64,000 nt of DNA from Escherichia phage T4. The notes under the pieces were generated by a model. The model saw only the letters and a program-made list of their open reading frames with translations. It was not told the origin of the DNA and ran no database searches. Below, piece after piece: positions 792-62,666 of the stretch (position 1 is its first letter; every line of letters starts with the position of its first letter). The stretch is from sequence record OL964745.1. One strand, given 5' to 3'. Position numbers and translations under genes: made by a program.

Positions 792-1590
792 TATACACCT
801 CATAGAACTTTTCATCAGGAATCCAACCGCGTTTAAATTCATTAAATGCTCGGCCGAATAATTTTGAATTCACAGTTATATTATTAACTGATTTCCATTT
901 AGCAACTCCCGTTCGTTTATAATGATCGGGGTCATATTTCGTGACGTACCATTCATATAAATTTGGTATTAATTTTACAGCCTCTGGATTTGTCGCTGAT
1001 TTATTATACCATGGTTTCGCTTTTTCAAGTTCAGCTGCTTTTGCAGTAGCAGCAACAGTATTTCCAATACCAACTAATTTTTCAGTTTTAATGCGTGGAT
1101 CATTAACATGAAGACGAAAAACTTCGCCCTTTTCATTTTTAAAGCATGTCATGCCTTTAATTCCAGGAAGCTTAACACCTTTATTAACACCGCACCATTC
1201 CTTTGGGTTAAATGATCCTTTAATTAATAAGGCGCATTTACCCGATTTAATACTTCTCATTAAAACTTTATCTTTCATAAAGTTTTTTGACCATTCAGAT
1301 ACTGCTCTTTGATGGTAAATTCTAGCAATTTCATATAATTTACTAGAACGTAAATATTTTTCAGTGTTTAACATTCTATTCATCGCATATGCCATTTCAC
1401 GATTACGATGAATTTTATATAGTAGAAAATGTGCTAAAAAGTGTTCACGAAAAGTCAGTTTCACCAAATTTTCTTTATCATCAGAACCTCCCATTGATCT
1501 TGGAAGGATATGATGAATTTCACCCTTAAATTTAGAAACGCGGGTTTTACCCCGCACTATTAAGTCATTATAGATTTTTTCGTAATTCAC
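772..1590 (-). CDS. mobA: HNH homing endonuclease, MobA-like, inserted between genes 39 and 60
   Basis: HNH motif EIHHILPRSMGGSDDKENLVKLTFREHFLAH; lies between the two topoisomerase genes. True start may be downstream of the first in-frame start. Confidence 0.7.
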   Translation of the reverse strand: MNYEKIYNDLIVRGKTRVSKFKGEIHHILPRSMGGSDDKENLVKLTFREHFLAHFLLYKIHRNREMAYAMNRMLNTEKYLRSSKLYEIARIYHQRAVSEWSKNFMKDKVLMRSIKSGKCALLIKGSFNPKEWCGVNKGVKLPGIKGMTCFKNEKGEVFRLHVNDPRIKTEKLVGIGNTVAATAKAAELEKAKPWYNKSATNPEAVKLIPNLYEWYVTKYDPDHYKRTGVAKWKSVNNITVNSKLFGRAFNEFKRGWIPDEKFYEVYNEICKN

Positions 1591-3446: not shown

Positions 3447-3454
3447 AATTACCC

Positions 3455-3625
3455 TTTAAGCAAGTCGTAAAATCCACCATTCACATGCTTAGGAGCGGAA
3501 ACTAACCGAACAGCCAGCCGATGACAATCAGGACATACATCAGTATCTCTTTCAGAAATTTTCTTGATTTTTTCGTATTCTTTTGCACAGTCTTTGGATT
3601 GACATTTATAATCATAAAGCGGCAT
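3455..3625 (-). CDS. small zinc-ribbon protein (about 56 aa)
   Basis: Hand translation MPLYDYKCQSKDCAKEYEKIKKISERDTDVCPDCHRLAVRL...; two CxxC pairs; below the ORF-track size cut-off. Confidence 0.45.
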
Positions 3626-5430: not shown

Positions 5431-5543
5431 AATTTTCTCTTTAGTTTAAGGTAATAAAGCCTTTTAGTTCGGCATAGGATTTTATTATCCTCAGTAGCTA
5501 TGGTGTTATAGTACCACAACTAACCGAGGAAGTAAACAACTTT

Positions 5544-12914: not shown

Positions 12915-13505
12915 TTATACATCTTCTTTTCTGAATAAGTAAATTAAATTCTTAAGAGCCGAACTTGTTACATCATATTTTCCTTTAAGCGCCTTTACAA
13001 CCGGGCCTGTTGCTGGTTTACCTAAAGAAACCCATAACTCGTGTATTTCGCTTTTAAGTGGTTCATGCCAATGCGGTGCTTTTCTTTGCGCCCTTGAAGT
13101 TCCTTCTGAAATCTTTTTATTTCCGCCATTCGAATAAAACTTTTTCATTACTTCAGATTGCCGAGCTTTTCTTTCTGCCCTATTTTGGGCTATACGTTGT
13201 GAATTCTTCATCCGAGTTTTTGTTTCAGGATTGTTTAATCTAAGTTTATGTTCTAATCGTTGTTGCTCAGTCCATTTTCTTCCTTCTCCACCCTGACCAC
13301 CAGGAGAAATATTAATGCAAGTATCTGGGTGTTTACGTTTTAATGCAGATTAGCTCACGTTCAACTTCATATGATTTTTCTCTAGAACCATGGCATTTTG
13401 ACCATCGTATTTTATAATTATCCATACTTACGATATATGTTCCATAGTATTTTACCTGAACCCGGATATTTATCATTATATGGATTTACAATAAATGATT
13501 CATGT
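12915..13505 (-). pseudogene. segF: segF-like homing endonuclease remnant in at least three frames
   Basis: Fragments ..YPGSGKILWNIYRKYG*, MDNYKIRWSKCHGSREKSYEVERELICIKT*, and a 144-codon C-terminal frame with ISPGGQGGEGRKWTEQQRLEHK; resemble SegA/SegB. No intact GIY-YIG N-terminus. Confidence 0.45.
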
Positions 13506-13514
13506 TTCCCAGCG

Positions 13515-13540
13515 TACCAAAAGACGCCTTTCGGCGTCCT
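13515..13540 (-). terminator. hairpin terminator after gene 56
   Basis: Minus RNA GACGCC-GAAA-GGCGUC followed by UUUUGG. Confidence 0.55.
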
Positions 13541-13572
13541 AACTTTTACTATATGTTCTATAAAATTTTTGT

Positions 13573-24310: not shown

Positions 24311-24385
24311 ATCCGTATCAGTAGTTGATAGTTGTATAGTACCATGGAAGAACAGTCTTGTAAACAGTTTTGTGAAAAAATTTTT
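24305..24385 (-). repeat. conserved early promoter plus 5' leader element
   Basis: About 80-bp element also at 49601..49675, 60773..60862, 4347..4440, 48166..48225, 63647..63715; minus-strand core GTTTAC...GGTACTATACAACTATCAACTA...GGAG. Confidence 0.55.
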
Positions 24386-24447
24386 AGGGAATCCAAAGGG
24401 TCCAGAATCATCTCTTTTTCATAAGTATAGATTTATATTACTTGTAT

Positions 24448-35158: not shown

Positions 35159-35940
35159 CTATAAAACGCTACGAATAGGCCCAAACATATCCATAAGCAA
35201 TTTTGCTTTTTCCAGATTGCACTTTTTAATATTAGACATGCATCCTTTAACGGATACAGCTGCGTCTTTAATTCTAGGAAATACTCGTAATAATTTTCCA
35301 GTAGTATCATATTGAAATACTGGCACATTTCTTTTCTGAGTTATCCCACGTAGATTTAGACATTTTTTGTTTAGTTGCATTAGACATCCTAGAGGGCTTT
35401 CCTATGTTATCAGAATAATATTTCCATTGAAATCCTCCAGCGGTTTTCCTTTTACCATCTACACATTGTTTAATTGAAGTTGAACAGCTATGACATATCT
35501 TCTGCAGCATCTGTAATACATCTATATTTGCGAATAAAATTTCCATTTAAATCATATTGATAAATTGGTTTTCCAGCATTTCGTCTAGCGTTAGACATGT
35601 ATTTATTATCATCTTTCCAGAACTCTTTCATGCTTTCCGATATTGAAGAAGATACAGCTGTTTTAATCCATCCATACATTATTATTTAGTCTTGTTCCGT
35701 CAGAACTATAACATCATACGAATAGCTAAAGCCAATTTAGGAAGTCTATAAATTTTAAATAATAAATGCGCGGTAAAATGTTCTTCTGGTGTCAAAAGAA
35801 CTAAATTAGTTTTATCATCTGTACCACCCATACATCTAGGAATTATATGATGTGTTTCAGTATAGTATGTCAAAAGACTTTTATCATTGCCTCTGTTTAG
35901 TCCTTTTTCGATCAGTAAATTATATGTTTAAATAATTCAT
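35159..35940 (-). pseudogene. mobB: HNH homing endonuclease remnant with tandem DNA-binding repeats (mobB-like)
   Basis: ATG at 35940 (MNYLNI*), then HNH motif TETHHIIPRCMGGTDDKTNLVLLTPEEHFTAHLL in another frame; three track ORFs carry repeats PIYQYDLNGNFIRKYRCITDAAEDM and PVFQYDTTGKLLRVFPRIKDAAV. Confidence 0.5.
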
Positions 35941-40055: not shown

Positions 40056-40822
40056 CCCCGTTTATATGAAACAATGTAATTTGGATAATTGTCATCTAAA
40101 CACAAATCTTTAATACGACTTGGGTGGAGTTTTAAATCTTTAGCAGCATCCACAAATGATTTATAGATATTGTCATTTATTTTAACATATTCTGGGACGG
40201 GATGAATTGTTATTTTTATATCTATAACATTTGGATGATTACTAACCTGTTCTTCAGAGCATTTAAGAAATTTTGCAGCTGATTTAAAACTTCTAAATTT
40301 ATTTCCGGATTTTAAAGCTATAGAAACAGTCTTTTTAGCCGTTCTACTACCAATATTATTTTTAACATGAGCTTCACTTCTACTATTATTTTTATAATGC
40401 TCAATCAATTTCTCTCGTATCTTATCTTTATGTTTTAAAGATAAGATTTTACCTTTATGGGCATTACTAAGTTTTTGCTTATGTTCTTCTGAATCCGGAT
40501 ATTTGTTAAATTTATATCCACCTATAGATTTATTAAGAATAAATTCGTTATTAAAATATTTCCTAATAAGCATTTCTTCATGTTTAAGGGCCGATTCATA
40601 AGAATCAAAAACTTGAAGAATTATCCACTTAGCTTTATAATCTTTAAGCTTTTCTTTAACAAGCTTAGATGACGAATTGTATTCTTTCCAATTTGTATCT
40701 TTACCATATATAGTTTTGAATTTTTTAAAACCTATATAAAAAGACTTATCAGGAAATCTTACCATATAGGTAAATGCTACAGAATTGGCAATTTTTAAGC
40801 TTTTTCTTAATTTCCATTTCAT
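40025..40822 (-). CDS. GIY-YIG intron endonuclease, I-TevII-like, with altered C-terminal tail
   Basis: 265-aa ORF (FTYMVRFPDKSFYIG plus NUMOD-like repeats) just 3' of a group I intron core; last ~10 codons run across the junction into nrdG sequence. Confidence 0.75.
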   Translation of the reverse strand: MKWKLRKSLKIANSVAFTYMVRFPDKSFYIGFKKFKTIYGKDTNWKEYNSSSKLVKEKLKDYKAKWIILQVFDSYESALKHEEMLIRKYFNNEFILNKSIGGYKFNKYPDSEEHKQKLSNAHKGKILSLKHKDKIREKLIEHYKNNSRSEAHVKNNIGSRTAKKTVSIALKSGNKFRSFKSAAKFLKCSEEQVSNHPNVIDIKITIHPVPEYVKINDNIYKSFVDAAKDLKLHPSRIKDLCLDDNYPNYIVSYKRGMLVTDSYSL

Positions 40823-41057
40823 CGTTTCACCTCGTATTCATATTTATACGAGGATAAACAGCTGCATGTCACCATGCAGTTCAGACTATATCTTCAACTC
40901 TTAGAGTTGTCTGCCGTTTCGGGTCGCTTGACCCTACTCCCTTACATTCATCAGGGATAGTCGTTGGGCATTTACAGCTACTGCTGATTTAGCAACGGAT
41001 TGTCTCAGTGAGAGTTTCCCGTTTTAGGCAGATTTTACATGAGCTTGACTTACGTTA
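40056..41057 (-). mobile_element. group I intron of nrdD (sunY type) carrying the I-TevII ORF; 3' terminus apparently missing
   Basis: Minus RNA from 41057: UAACGUAAGUCAAGCUCAUGUAAAAUCUGCCUAAAACGGGAAACUCUCACUGAGACAAUCCGUUGCUAAAUCAGC... (td-like core), then the endonuclease ORF. About 1002 nt against about 1033 recalled for T4. Confidence 0.75.
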
Positions 41058-41595
41058 ACTCATAAGCTTGGAATGCATCGTATACGTCTTTTTCTGTTTT
41101 AGATTGAGCATAATTCAACGCATCAGCGATTTGCCATTTTTCTGCATCCTCAATATGTTTTGCATAGGTGCGTTTAACATAAGGAGAAAGTACTTTATCT
41201 ACATTCGCAAAAGTCGTTCCGCCGTATTGGTGAGAAGCAACTTGCGCAGTAATTTGTGCCATAATTGCAGTAGCAACTCCAATTGATTTAGGAGTTTCAA
41301 TCTGCGCATTACCAAGCTTAAATCCGTTTTCAAGCATTCCTTTTAAATATACTAAACAGCAATTAGTAAATGGAAGAGCAGGGGAATAATCAATATCATG
41401 CACGTGAATAATTCCGCTTTCATGCGCTTTCATAATAAAAGACGGGACCATATTTTTGGCAATGTGTTTAGACACAATACCAGCCATAAGGTCCCGTTGA
41501 GTTGGAAAAACACGAGAATCTTTATTAGCATTCTCGTTTAAAAGGTCTTTATTAGTTTTATGAATTAATCCTTCAATTTCTTTTTCAATTGTCAT
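41058..41595 (-). pseudogene. nrdD: anaerobic ribonucleotide reductase NrdD, exon 1 only
   Basis: N-terminal class III RNR sequence (ENANKDS, HVHDIDY, FTNCC with Cys at residue 79), ending ..FQAYE at GCTTATGAGT immediately before the intron; no exon 2 in the window. Confidence 0.8.
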
Positions 41596-44499: not shown

Positions 44500-44900
44500 T
44501 TCACGAAGGCTAATTACGAGTTTATATCCTTCCCAACCGCATATTCTTAAAAGGATATGTATGAATTTCTACTGTTTCCATACAAAGTAATGCGGTCTCT
44601 AATTGACGAGTTAGTGCTAGCAATTGAGAAAAATTTATTAATATTCTTTTGGTTAGTTTCTGGTGTAAAAAATCCATAATTCACAAATAGATACTTTATT
44701 TTTATCAAGTTCATATTCTTTTATGATAATCATATCAGAAGCCAAAGGATGAATTTGACGATAATCGCCAACATAATTTAGAAGCTGATTTTAGAATTTG
44801 CTTCTTGAAAAGTCTGAAATTACTAATCCAACGACGAGTAAAAATATTCTCAGGGTCTTCTTTATTATTGAGATGATAAGAATTAACATCACCGAACCAA

Positions 44901-45155
44901 TTATCCTACTACATCTTTAGTTCGTTTAATTTCTTTCCCAAAATTACCAAGAATATCCCGATTAACCAAATATGAAAGAAGACGAGACTCTTTAAAGGTT
45001 TTCTTGATAACATCTTTATCTACACGGCTAGAAATTTTACGAATTTCATGAATAAATTTAGTAGAAGAAACAATACTTGCATCAACACTATTGAGCCACT
45101 GATTGATAATAGAAAGAACGCTATTTTGGCCAAACATCGGTATAGCTATCATCAA
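44901..45155 (-). CDS. hypothetical protein (84 aa)
   Basis: ORF track. Confidence 0.35.
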   Translation of the reverse strand: MMIAIPMFGQNSVLSIINQWLNSVDASIVSSTKFIHEIRKISSRVDKDVIKKTFKESRLLSYLVNRDILGNFGKEIKRTKDVVG

Positions 45156-45221
45156 TAACGCTATTGAATGATTTGATATTCGTTACGAGTCATATTAATC
45201 TCCTCAGTAGAAAGTAAGAAC

Positions 45222-49708: not shown

Positions 49709-50056
49709 TCATTTATAATAACTTCGATGGTTTTCAAGATAAACCCTCTCAAGGAAGTCATCCCAGAAACTCATGTCTACTTTTTGCTGCATACCGTTCT
49801 TAGAAGCTTCAGTAGATGCTGCTTCTATAAATCCTGGGCATGAAGAATAAAAATGAATTTTATGCTCATCATTAATGCTTACAATTTTATCAGTGTAAGC
49901 ATATTCAATTTGGGTTAAACGAACAATTTCGCTAGGCGTAAAATATAACATGTCATCTTCTTGCGTCAAACGATACATGTTATTTACTTTTTCTATAGCC
50001 AATTCACCAAAAAGTGGACTAACTTCTAATACTAGTCGTTTCGCCTCGCTCATCAT
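49709..50056 (-). CDS. hypothetical protein (115 aa)
   Basis: ORF track. Confidence 0.4.
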   Translation of the reverse strand: MMSEAKRLVLEVSPLFGELAIEKVNNMYRLTQEDDMLYFTPSEIVRLTQIEYAYTDKIVSINDEHKIHFYSSCPGFIEAASTEASKNGMQQKVDMSFWDDFLERVYLENHRSYYK

Positions 50057-50383
50057 TACATACTCCTCTGAATCATATTAATAATGTTATTCACCAGATT
50101 ATAAGTAAACATTGGGTAATTATATTGAATCATCACATATATAACAAACAAAACTTTCATTCTCTTCTCCTTGGCAGTTGACAAGATTACTATACCATAA
50201 TCTTGTCAACTTGTAAACCATTAAATGACGTTTTCGATAAAATTTTGAAGCTTTGTATGAGCATCAACCATGATTTTCATTTCTTCCTTGGCAAAAGCTG
50301 TGCCTCTTTCCCGAGAAGAACATTCATAGTCAGAAACTGCATTAGCATATTCTTCAATTAGCTTCATTAAAAACATCTGTTTT

Positions 50384-50578
50384 TCAGTTTTCATTATTCC
50401 ACCTAATCATTTCAAGATATTGAACTAACTTAGCTTTGGATTTATCCAAATCCCTTTTAGCTGCTTCTATACCGTCGTATGAATATCCTTCACAATGCTC
50501 AACTGCTAATTGATATGAATCTATTTCAATATCATGCGCTAATTTAATGATTTTTTCAAACTGTTCGCGTGTTAGCAT
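50384..50578 (-). CDS. hypothetical protein (64 aa)
   Basis: ORF track. Confidence 0.35.
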   Translation of the reverse strand: MLTREQFEKIIKLAHDIEIDSYQLAVEHCEGYSYDGIEAAKRDLDKSKAKLVQYLEMIRWNNEN

Positions 50579-52962: not shown

Positions 52963-53154
52963 CTACATGCTGTTTACGACCTTTCTTATCAATAAAGGTA
53001 TATTCAACGAATGTTCCAATGTAGTCTTATCTACATCATGTGGACTATTAATTGGACATTTAGTGCGACAAATGCGTTCCCATTGACGAATAATTACTGC
53101 CTTATTCTTTGGGTCATATGGATGTGGATAATGTATATTCATAATAGTTCCCAA
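52963..53154 (-). CDS. hypothetical protein (63 aa)
   Basis: ORF track. Confidence 0.35.
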   Translation of the reverse strand: MGTIMNIHYPHPYDPKNKAVIIRQWERICRTKCPINSPHDVDKTTLEHSLNIPLLIRKVVNSM

Positions 53155-53571
53155 TCAACAATCACAATTTCTAATTTAGAGGAATATGTATCTAAAATCC
53201 CCTCAATAATATCCCAGTTCCCTTTACCTATGCCTGCACCAATCCTAGGCATATAGATTGTAGGTTTAATCAGTTTATTTTCACCAAACTCATTTAATTC
53301 TAACATACAATTCATTAAAGCGGAATACTCAATTTGGCCCTGGTTGAAATTGAGTATAAAGATTGAAGCAGTAAGCTTTATGAGTCCTAAAGTATTTTTC
53401 ATAGACTGAGTAAGAACCGAGTTTAGTTACATCACCCCATTCAGTCTGTAATTTATCAGCTTCCAAAATTTTAGGGAAAGCTTTGGTTAATTGACCCGCT
53501 ACGCCTGAACCCATAGTATGAAAACAATTATCCATGTGCAATATTTTTACCTTCAGCGAAAAGGGCGACAA
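53139..53571 (-). pseudogene. macro-domain-like protein split into two overlapping frames
   Basis: 53329..53571 carries HTMGSGVAGQLTKAFP; 53139..53402 carries IYMPRIGAGIGKGNWDIIEGIL; 74-nt overlap in different frames. Confidence 0.4.
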
Positions 53572-53593
53572 TATCGCCCTTGATATTTTACAA

Positions 53594-54948: not shown

Positions 54949-55092
54949 GTTATTCTCCTCTTAACTGATAGAAAAATTATACCACAGTCAAGAGGAGTCC
55001 ATTTCTGTATTTACCCATTACCGCGCTTGGGCTCGACCTTATTACAGGTTGGCGGGAATCCCTCATATAATCATGAGGTCCAGGTTGTTCCC

Positions 55093-55509
55093 TTATGCAT
55101 AAATCGCCTTACCGTAGTATTTGTACCAAGTAGGACGTTGTGCAATTTTTTCATCTAAACGAGCTTGTGATATAGCAATAGAAGCTTCATGGGGAATATA
55201 ATCACCACGGAATTCCTGAGGAATATCACTAATATCCTGGACTGTAGTATCCTTGATATTAAAACCACGTTTTAAACATTCAGCTATAAGCTCAATTTGA
55301 CGTTTACGTAAGAACTCGAGCTTATCGTAAAAGAATGTAACATGACCTGCGCCAAGGATAAAAGTAGGACTGATTTTAAAATCACGAACACGTTTACCGT
55401 TAGCAACATGCTTACGAACTGCACCAAAAACACGCGGCAATTCACGATATTCAGCCATTAAGTGTTGGTCAGCCAATTCAGATACTAAAGTAAGGTTGAT
55501 ACGAGTCAT
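55093..55509 (-). CDS. denV: endonuclease V (DenV), pyrimidine-dimer DNA glycosylase
   Basis: 138-aa [30 protein letters not shown]... Confidence 0.95.
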
Positions 55510-55569
55510 TTTAGTGTTCTCCTGTAGTTGATAGGTCTATAGTATCATACCTACAGGAGATGTAAACTG

Positions 55570-56656: not shown

Positions 56657-57620
<964 letters not shown>

Positions 57621-60502: not shown

Positions 60503-60829
60503 TTATTTCATATTATTGAAATATTCTTCTGCGATTTCGTCGTTATCATGGTAAACTTTAGAAGACAGTTTAACATAACTTTCAGCAGTGAACATGTTAA
60601 TCACAACCTTTACAGTATACCACTGACCGTCTTCATTACCCATTACTGCGTAAGTTTCAAACATCGGATGGTCAGGACCGATAACTTTAATATCATTCAC
60701 CGTACGACCGAAATCTTCTGAAACACATTTCATAAAGAAGTTGAAAAGTTCACCGTAATTATCCATTTTATTCTCCAAGTTATTTTCTGTATCAGTAGTT
60801 GATAGTTGTATAGTACCATGGAAGAACAA
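60503..60829 (-). CDS. hypothetical protein (108 aa)
   Basis: ORF track. Confidence 0.4.
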   Translation of the reverse strand: MFFHGTIQLSTTDTENNLENKMDNYGELFNFFMKCVSEDFGRTVNDIKVIGPDHPMFETYAVMGNEDGQWYTVKVVINMFTAESYVKLSSKVYHDNDEIAEEYFNNMK

Positions 60830-61039
60830 GGATGTAAACAGTTTTGTGAAAAAATTTTTAAAAAGTTTTAGGGAATTCTAGGGCGGAGAGGGGCAATTAA
60901 AAGATAGGATAATATATTATAAAGGGTATAAACTAAATGATGCCTAGAGAGGTCTGGAAAGGCTTAGATACCAAAAAGCCCCAACCTTTCGGTCGGGGCT
61001 AAGCCTTGCGGCAACCTTGTCGGGGTTCCACCTGCCAAG

Positions 61040-61310
61040 GCAAGTGTTTGTACGAAACGCCGGGATTCGAACCCGGTTATTAAGTAGTTGACGCTACTCA
61101 ATATTTTTAAAAGGCCATATCTCAACCATATCCGAACGTTCCGTCAAAAACGCTACTCGGCTTACGGCAAAGATATTTCCTCGAATCGATAATTTGGTGC
61201 GCCGTTTCTGCTGTGATGTAAGAGGGCATCAATAAACGCAAAGATTATTAACGCAATTCCTTACTCAGGGAACATCAGTCCGACGACTTACCGGTAGCGA
61301 CCCGGTTTCT
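61040..61310 (-). ncRNA. tRNA-like small stable RNAs (T4 RNA C / RNA D region)
   Basis: Downstream of tRNA-Arg: segments with T-arm CCGGG-UUCGAAU-CCCGG and ...ACGGCGCACCA 3' end; boundaries approximate. Confidence 0.45.
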
Positions 61311-61314
61311 CATT

Positions 61315-61389
61315 TGGTATCCCGCCCTGGGATCGAACCAGGACCGCAAACTTAGAAGGATCGTATGCTATCCATTACACCAGCGGGAC
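61315..61389 (-). tRNA. tRNA-Arg (anticodon UCU)
   Basis: rc gives GTCCCGCTGGTGTAATGGATAGCATACGATCCTTCTAAGTTTGCGGTCCTGGTTCGATCCCAGGGCGGGATACCA; loop CUUCUAA. Confidence 0.8.
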
Positions 61390-61711
61390 GTAATTTAAAA
61401 TTTCATTTTTCGACCTTTAAACCATCCTTCTGGAATTGGGTCAGTTTTCTTAATACGTTTAGAAACTTTTTCATCTAATGAATGAATCCACATCATACCG
61501 AATTGGGAATTCTTTTCACCTTTCTGGTGATTATTTTTGGCGTGAGATTCTTTCATTTTATTAATAGTTTCAGGAGTATGATGCTTATTTAGATCTGCTA
61601 TTATTTAAAAATTTTTCCCTGTATTCAGGAGTTGACCACAAACGTTTAAATACATTTGAACCAATTTTACGATATTTTTCTTGAAGTAAAATATCATTTT
61701 CAAAACGTGAC

Positions 61712-62052
61712 TTAAACGATAGCTCCTTTTAAGCTAGCATCTTTCTTCTGGTTTAGCATTCCAGGAATATTTACATGATCCCATCCACCTTCACCGCCAA
61801 GTTTTAAATTATACACATCTGGTCTATTTAAAAACTCTTCTGTGACAATATTTTTCTCGGCTTCAAGCATAGATTCTTTATCGTCAAAATACTCTAATAT
61901 TTCTTTAGAAAAATTTTCTATACCATATTTATCTTGGGCTCTTTTTAATAATTTACCAGAACCCATATCCATCATCTAAATTTTCGGTAGAATGCACACC
62001 AATATAAATTTTATTATTAATTTTATTTGTTATTTTATAAGTGTAATAGAAC
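61712..62052 (-). pseudogene. segB: GIY-YIG homing endonuclease SegB-like, frameshifted, inside the tRNA cluster
   Basis: MFYYTYKITNKINNKIYIGVHSTENLDDGY then out of frame into MGSGKLLKRAQDKYG...YNLKLGGEGG (track ORF 61712..61975); TATATG reads TATG at about 61964-61967. Confidence 0.7.
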
Positions 62053-62095
62053 ATAAATATCTCCTATTTCTAAGAGTATTTATGTTCTCAAAATA

Positions 62096-62169
62096 TGACC
62101 CAGACCAGATTTGAACTGGTAACCTTTCCCTTATGAGGGGACTGCTGCTAACCATTGAGCTACAGGGCC
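62096..62169 (-). tRNA. tRNA-Ile (anticodon CAU)
   Basis: Cloverleaf with loop CUCAUAA; T-arm ACCAG-UUCAAAU-CUGGU. Confidence 0.75.
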
Positions 62170-62170
62170 T

Positions 62171-62246
62171 TGGTGCTGATTGACGGAATCGAACCGCCGA
62201 CATCCTCATTACAAGTGAGGTGCTCTACCTACTGAGCTAAATCAGC
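62171..62246 (-). tRNA. tRNA-Thr (anticodon UGU)
   Basis: GCTGATTTAGCTCAGTAGGTAGAGCACCTCACTTGTAATGAGG...GGTTCGATTCC...AATCAGCACCA. Confidence 0.85.
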
Positions 62247-62253
62247 AAAATTA

Positions 62254-62340
62254 CGGAGGCGATAGGATTTGAACCTATGAGTCGCCGGAGCGACTGCCGG
62301 TTTTCAAGACCGGTGCATTAAACCACTCTGCCACGCCTCC
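62254..62340 (-). tRNA. tRNA-Ser (anticodon UGA)
   Basis: GGAGGCGTGGCAGAGTGG...CCGGTCTTGAAAACCGG... long variable arm ...GGTTCAAATCC...CGCCTCCG. Confidence 0.85.
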
Positions 62341-62342
62341 AG

Positions 62343-62416
62343 TCTCCATACAAGGATTTGAACCTTGGACCTCCTGATCCCAAATCAGGCGCTCTACCAA
62401 ACTGAGCTACACGGAG
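62343..62416 (-). tRNA. tRNA-Pro (anticodon UGG)
   Basis: Anticodon arm CCTGA-TTTGGGA-TCAGG; T-loop GGTTCAAATCC. Confidence 0.8.
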
Positions 62417-62426
62417 TAAATTAAAT

Positions 62427-62500
<74 letters not shown>

Positions 62501-62505
62501 AAATT

Positions 62506-62592
62506 TGGTGCGAGAAGTGGGACTCGAACCCACAAGGAAATCATTCCGCAGCATTTTAAGTGCTGTGCCTTTACCAATTTGACCATTCTCGC
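62506..62592 (-). tRNA. tRNA-Leu (anticodon UAA)
   Basis: GCGAGAATGGTCAAATTGGTAAAGGCACAGCACTTAAAATGCTG... long variable arm ...GGTTCGAGTCC...CTCGCACCA. Confidence 0.85.
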
Positions 62593-62593
62593 G

Positions 62594-62666
62594 CTGGGAA
62601 TAAAGGACTCGAACCTTTGCATCTAGCAGTCAAAGTGCTATGCCTTACCAACTTGGCTAATTCCCA
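62594..62666 (-). tRNA. tRNA-Gln (anticodon UUG)
   Basis: TGGGAATTAGCCAAGTTGGTAAGGCATAGCACTTTGACTGCTA...GGTTCGAGTCC...ATTCCCAG. Confidence 0.85.

Follow-up and report, generated by a model that had tools for sequence, protein, structure and literature searches.

The segB gene carried by the stretch of DNA analysed here (64,000 nucleotides of Escherichia phage T4, sequence record OL964745.1, referred to below as the window) is interrupted by three separate 2-nt deletions, and it is very probably a null allele of T4's own segB that derives from the CiPGr Cas9-library lineage (Yuan et al., 2022). The feature is already documented via this published laboratory lineage and is neither natural nor new. 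The evidence comes from the structure of the gene itself, from a sister clone in the databases and from the distribution of small deletions along the whole window.

Structure of the segB remnant

The T4 tRNA cluster lies on the minus strand at 61315-62666, in the order Gln, Leu, Gly, Pro, Ser, Thr, Ile, a protein-coding gap and Arg. In the reference T4 annotation the gap between tRNA-Ile and tRNA-Arg is segB (666 nt, 221 codons), which codes for a GIY-YIG homing endonuclease. The seven tRNA genes upstream of it (Gln, Leu, Gly, Pro, Ser, Thr and Ile; 62096..62666, minus strand) and the tRNA-Arg(UCU) gene directly downstream (61315..61389, minus strand) are identical to those of the wild type (MT984581), i.e., eight of eight tRNA genes are unchanged in the window. 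The tRNA-Ile has a CAU anticodon and is called 'Met' by ARAGORN. In the same neighbourhood, a 75-nt stretch between e.8 and rnaC (60786-60860) is 93% identical to 24312-24386, between imm.1 and gene 43, the two forming a dispersed intergenic repeat.

The remnant of segB occupies 61395..62054 (minus strand) and measures 660 nt, against the 666 nt of the reference gene. When aligned with NC_000866, MZ375356 and X03016, all 660 retained bases were identical to the reference, and the three 2-nt gaps were the only difference from it. Putting the three dinucleotides back gives exactly the segB coding sequence and protein of NC_000866 (666 nt, 221 aa), and the gene is therefore segB itself. A previous reading of this DNA, made from the sequence alone, had described a SegB-like GIY-YIG homing endonuclease within the tRNA cluster; the class and the location were right, but "SegB-like" understates the identity. 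Compared with wild-type T4 SegB (NP_049745.2; Brok-Volchanskaya et al., 2008, PMC2330249), the locus, the start codon, the ribosome binding site and the flanking tRNA genes are the same, and the Shine-Dalgarno GGAG at 62061..62064 (minus strand), 6 nt upstream of the segB ATG, is intact. A scan for promoters and terminators around segB found no promoters above the shuffled expectation. The difference is that the wild-type gene is intact, whereas the reading frame in the window is broken at codons ~31, ~113 and ~157. As for the older records, the 1985 sequence of the T4 tRNA region (X03016.1) lacks one C near segB codon 4 (position ~1660, window ~62041), a historical sequencing error that accounts for the shorter 'ORF5' with a downstream start in that record.

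The three deletions remove AT at ~61965, AA at 61720 and TT at 61593. The first (61965..61968, minus strand) turns (AT)3 into (AT)2 at codon 31, inside the GIY-YIG catalytic domain: positions 61965-61968 read GGATATGGG in the window and GGATATATGGG in wild-type T4, and in the alignment with reference T4 GGATATATGG has become GGATATGG, with one AT unit gone and ATAT left at these four positions. The second (61720, minus strand) turns AAA into A, with GCTAAATCG becoming GCTATCG at codon ~113, and the third (61593, minus strand) TTT into T, with AGATTTCTA becoming AGATCTA at codon ~157. The sequence-only reading had located a missing AT unit at about 61964-61967, within 1 nt of what the alignment gives. 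It had taken this loss as the only frameshift, however, and a single frameshift in segB is rejected by the alignment. It follows that re-inserting the AT, although at the correct site, would not restore the frame, as the two further deletions stay.

As a consequence the remnant reads successively in frames 0, 1, 2 and 0, with several stops in each out-of-frame stretch. The start ATG (62054-62052, minus strand) opens MFYYTYKITNKINNKIYIGVHSTENLDDGY, followed by GFW and a stop. This N-terminal ORF (61953..62054, minus strand) codes for 33 aa, of which 30 are native residues that include the YIG motif (Y17, G19), and translation from the native segB start can give no other product. The early stop after the GIY-YIG N-terminus had already been noticed from the letters alone, and so had the continuation in another frame, which is also borne out: MGSGKLLKRAQDKYG...YNLKLGGEGG lies in the next frame, within an ORF of 87 aa at 61712..61975 (minus strand) that holds native residues 31-112 (MGSGKLL...LKGA). 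The end of the feature had been set at 61712, and this has to be corrected, since the stop at that position was created by the second deletion and the gene runs on to 61395. Beyond it come a third-frame stretch at 61594..61719 (minus strand) with native residues ~114-155 (SFKSRFENDILLQEKYRKIGSNVFKRLWSTPEYREKFLNNSR) and a C-terminal stretch at 61395..61592 (minus strand), which belongs to the putative DNA-binding region. Because the net loss amounts to 6 nt, the original frame is resumed for the last ~65 codons. Within this part, the free-standing 53-aa ORF at 61395..61556 is the sole piece annotated as 'SegB' in the MZ375356 record. The catalytic domain and the C-terminal DNA-binding region are thus not joined in frame, and there are stops between the four segments.

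The fragments score accordingly in profile searches, in which the extent of the catalytic domain was taken from the Pfam coordinates. Intact SegB reaches 28.3 bits against Pfam GIY-YIG (PF01541, threshold 22.6 bits) over residues 3-71, while no segB fragment of the window reaches the threshold, with 18.4 bits for the 33-aa product and no match for the 87-aa and 53-aa pieces. A PDB sequence search with intact SegB, aimed at placing the catalytic Arg and Glu, gave no matches. Work on the SegB of phage T6 has identified Y17 and G19 as catalytic residues, and overexpressed SegB with a C-terminal truncation was non-toxic, in contrast to the wild-type protein (PMC13096335), in line with a loss of activity here. 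The C-terminal DNA-binding region of SegB contains NUMOD3 (PMC2330249). The 33-aa peptide is without most of the GIY-YIG domain and without the whole DNA-binding part, so the enzyme is expected to be dead. Judging from its reading frames, segB in the window would be a null allele or pseudogene and not a functional member of SegB.

Relationship to the clone T4_583L

The closest database relative of the window is MZ375356.1, 'Mutant Escherichia phage T4 clone T4_583L', and base 1 of both sequences corresponds to T4 coordinate 2200. T4_583L (151,790 bp) is the smallest T4 mutant described by Yuan et al. (NAR 2022, PMC9825161). In CiPGr, phages went through 300-600 passages and >2000 generations on E. 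coli hosts carrying SpCas9, lambda Red and a chip-synthesised guide library with 50-bp homology arms; there were up to 8 guides per non-essential gene, and essential genes were left without guides. In the clone names Tn is the transfer number and L stands for large plaque. The authors reported 1322 undesigned 1-2-base deletions in the T4 populations, and in T4 only, and suggested tentatively that some of the small deletions are CRISPR-escape mutations. They also noted the poor cleavage of modified T4 DNA by Cas9 and reported that T4_583L, resequenced after 12 transfers, had remained stable (PMC9825161). The main text of the paper does not name segB.

Relative to T4, the window carries five kb-scale deletions and many small indels. 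T4_583L shares four of the five large-deletion junctions, two of them at the left breakpoint only (common breakpoints 7688/8146 and 48941/49847; common left ends 42788 and 55540). It also shares 54 of the 71 small lesions of the window, including all three segB deletions at the same positions. Among the losses common to both clones are an almost exact deletion of motB.2 (461 bp, with an ATTT microhomology, window 5479-5482) and one of nrdC.3 as far as its start codon (905 bp, with a blunt junction, window 44154/44155); both have the appearance of whole-gene deletions templated by a donor, as in the 'cassette-gene' design of CiPGr.

The two sequences are nevertheless different. T4_583L has 142 small lesions against the 71 of the window, has more or larger deletions, and carries a fourth lesion at segB, the loss of AT between the Shine-Dalgarno GGAG and the ATG, which is absent from the window. 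Both also contain private, differing small lesions. This surplus and the private lesions on both sides indicate that the window represents the first 64 kb of a sister or earlier clone and not the same record.

There is one reason for caution about the record as a whole. Three of the large deletions are each exactly 2046 bp long, blunt-ended and off gene boundaries (junctions 40057, 49827/49828 and 54996/54997), and each starts where a larger, minihomology-flanked deletion of T4_583L has its left breakpoint. They are probably a truncated representation of longer deletions, made during sequence building, in which case parental sequence may have been filled in at window positions ~40057-41322, 49828-50459 and 54997-55554. 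This pattern is one sign of artificial construction. The 2046-bp deletions do not touch segB.

Small deletions across the window

The choice of reference matters here. Against NC_000866 the window shows 146 differences, about half of which are errors or polymorphisms of this old reference. Examples are eight single-C differences at T4 3450-3577 (window 1251-1370, from gene 60.1 to mobA), a region where the mobA ORF is annotated as much longer in modern T4 records, and a single C in rnaD (window 61273). These C differences vanish against MT984581, so they belong to NC_000866 and are not lesions, and for the same reason we rejected taking the differences from the old reference at face value. Compared with the modern wild type MT984581, the window has 66 small deletions, one insertion and four substitutions. 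Most of the deletions are of 2 nt (47), and the remainder are of 3 nt (13), 4 nt (3) and 1 nt (3). In 60 of the 66, a short A/T tandem repeat or microhomology has lost one unit, in repeats such as (AT)n, (TA)n, (AAT)n, (ATC)3 and (AATT)2, together with AAA->A and TTT->T. The second and third segB lesions are of the last two kinds.

Not one of the 66 small deletions falls in a strictly essential gene (genes 39, 60, 56, 61, 41, 42, 43, 62, 44, 45, 46, 47, 55, 49 and e; 14.9 kb), with P=2.5e-8 by length. The absence is equally clear when only comparable A/T-repeat sites are counted, 1389 of 6478 of which are in essential genes (P=1.2e-7 by count). Such a distribution indicates that the lesions are real and filtered by selection, and not random sequencing noise. 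Genes hit once by a 3-nt deletion stay in frame, namely a-gt (34830), motB (4916) and nrdC.6 (46365). Unlike these, the multiply hit genes carry frameshifts, which is consistent with selection filtering.

Within the dispensable DNA the lesions are far from evenly spread. There are 10 in mobB, 8 in nrdC.4, 4 each in nudE and tk.4, and 3 each in segB, segF, rI.1, nrdC.1 and dam, and the clustering by gene is strong (chi-square P=2e-15 over 109 non-essential genes; lesion excess P=2e-7 for mobB and P=8e-5 for nrdC.4). The heavily hit regions are mobB 35218-35921, nrdC.4 44541-45176, nudE 57234-57569, tk.4 53147-53583 and segF 13349-13550. At the other extreme, the 7.4 kb that were deleted outright in T4_583L contain no small lesions, where 9.9 would be expected (P=5e-5); without the segments that are possibly filled in from the reference, there are still 0 lesions against 6.6 expected.

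Origin of the segB lesions

Three independent 2-nt contractions of short A/T repeats would have broken segB during the iterative CiPGr passage. The first of them is a plausible Cas9-escape allele: alone among the three, it adjoins a possible SpCas9 PAM (ATATAT|GGG; CCC/GGG, GGG/TGG) at a seed position, and since the loss of AT shifts the target from seed position 5 onward, escape is credible there. The other two may be slippage or microhomology scars of a mutagenic process targeted to the locus, a candidate for which would be error-prone, recombination-dependent repair after repeated and partial Cas9 cutting of the glucosyl-HMC DNA. The scars would then have been fixed because segB was already dispensable. 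Its loss would be tolerated because SegB is a selfish homing nuclease that brings no benefit in single-phage passage; the advantages known for SegB arise only in mixed infection with segB-less relatives or under certain host defences, and neither is present in CiPGr. Extended to the whole set, the proposal would be that most of the 1-4-nt A/T contractions, the second and third of segB included, are PAM-independent, T4-specific scars of locus-targeted mutagenesis and not escape mutations. We hold this wider version as a tentative possibility, rather doubtful as it stands. If it is true, targeted genes can be inactivated with their protospacers untouched.

T4 mutants that escape CRISPR have been studied before (Tao et al., 2018, PMC5812732; Wu et al., 2021, PMC8262927), and as in the window their lesions arose under Cas9 pressure. 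In those mutants, deletions flanked by short homologies are dominant in non-essential genes (PMC5812732, PMC8262927), with minihomologies of 3-13 nt and tens to thousands of bp lost, the protospacer included (PMC8262927). The losses in the window are different, since they measure 1-4 nt and are mostly unrelated to a PAM, as with the second and third segB lesions.

All three segB lesions could in principle be direct escape mutations, each destroying the protospacer or PAM of a designed SpCas9 guide. In favour of this are the up to 8 spacers available against each non-essential gene, the escape proposed for some small deletions by the authors themselves (PMC9825161), the position of the first lesion in a seed beside GGG/TGG, and also the fairly even spread of lesions along the heavily hit genes. 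Moreover, there are sites hit independently in both clones, where the private lesions differ and sometimes lie within 6 nt of each other, mostly inside possible protospacers, so that some of the lesions probably did arise as escape alleles. However, the nearest correctly oriented NGG is 28 nt from the second segB lesion and 33 nt from the third, so that both are outside any 20-nt NGG protospacer, and 36% of the 66 lesions are >20 nt from any NGG PAM. The distances of the 66 to the nearest PAM are those of matched A/T control sites (Mann-Whitney p=0.65). Binned NGG profiles in both orientations and single-site NGG and TTTV profiles, compared with matched A/T-repeat controls, revealed no enrichment after correction either, one nominal bin of PAM distance (p=0.004) being lost when multiple tests were allowed for. 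In the absence of PAM enrichment in three kinds of test, we have rejected CRISPR escape as a general explanation, and we find it unlikely that it accounts for all three lesions of segB. The tentative attribution made by the authors is unsupported at most sites by these PAM tests.

Another alternative is that segB is actually intact and the deletions are errors of sequencing, assembly or consensus at short A/T repeats. All the lesions are contractions of such repeats, a context prone to indel errors, the three deletions of exactly 2046 bp hint at a consensus that was not trivially built, and the records of the window and of T4_583L could come from a common pipeline. Yet errors would hardly have spared every essential gene, clustered 10-fold in particular dispensable genes or preserved the frame wherever an important gene has a single hit. 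Private lesions also differ between the two clones, and other Illumina-era records of wild-type T4 are without these deletions. Besides, 1-2-base deletions were seen by the authors in the reads of T4 populations only, and T4_583L kept its sequence when resequenced (PMC9825161). Taken together, this makes an artefact quite improbable.

Neutral decay, i.e., a raised rate of slippage throughout the genome combined with relaxed selection and no local targeting, has in its favour the >2000 generations of passage, a deletion spectrum that resembles slippage and the dispensability of SegB in single infection (PMC2330249). The density of lesions over dispensable DNA is very uneven, however, with 8-10 lesions each in nrdC.4 and mobB and none in the 7.4 kb lost by the sister clone. 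Gene 43, which codes for the DNA polymerase, has no change able to make a mutator. Uniform drift is for these reasons a very improbable source of the lesions.

Next to no credence can be given to the idea that a wild T4-like phage carries segB as a natural pseudogene or reads it by programmed recoding. Decay of homing endonuclease genes is known from nature (one example is the 'truncated SegB-like protein' annotated in RB51) and translational bypass has a precedent in T4 gene 60, but the 666-nt ORF is intact in every wild-type T4 record, the several stops in each out-of-frame stretch would call for three successive recoding events, other laboratory deletions of the window are shared with the engineered clone, and the three junctions are absent from natural records. 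In BLAST searches of phage records with two junction queries, the segB alleles of the window appeared in 1 of 181 and 1 of 66 records, in both cases MZ375356, and an exact scan of IMG/VR found none of the three junctions in any contig, against 3 contigs with the intact junction. A natural allele is rejected on these grounds. As to RB51 (FJ839693.1), it resembles the window in having a defective segB copy in a T4-type tRNA region. However, it retains an intact ATATAT at the position of the first lesion (97.3% match, with a 2-nt gap relative to the window), so the truncation in RB51 must be a different, natural lesion. Natural decay of segB thus does occur in some relatives. The sequence-only reading had implied either a sequencing error or a naturally defective homing gene, and neither is the best interpretation of lesions that are common to an independently deposited sister clone.

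Expected consequences of the segB frameshifts

The frameshifted endonuclease is best regarded as a by-product of a published genome reduction, and not as a case of natural decay, recoding or simple sequencing error. Its wider interest is limited to the mutational signature, that is, losses of 2 nt at A/T repeats that are clustered by gene and unrelated to PAMs. The signature may reflect repair-associated mutagenesis around partial Cas9 cuts, a candidate mechanism that is the sole part of the story with some novelty.

SegB cuts tRNA sites of the T-psi-C type, with GGTTCRANTCC as recognition core, and secondary SegB sites are present in the tRNA genes of T4 itself (PMC2330249). In the window this core occurs 6 times against 0.13 expected by chance, in five tRNA genes (62185-62615) and in rnaC (61063-61073), and these would be potential self-cleavage sites around a dead nuclease gene. 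In crosses with segB-less phages such as T2L, SegB drives the preferential inheritance of the T4 tRNA region (PMC2330249), and a SegB-dependent segmental amplification has been described for phage T6 (PMC13096335).

For the biology of T4, the broken gene confirms that the phage can do without segB when grown on E. coli MG1655 through hundreds of transfers. Clones with this allele are predicted to be without SegB-dependent marker exclusion and, if T4 SegB acts in the same way as that of T6, they would also be without segmental amplification of the T6 type.
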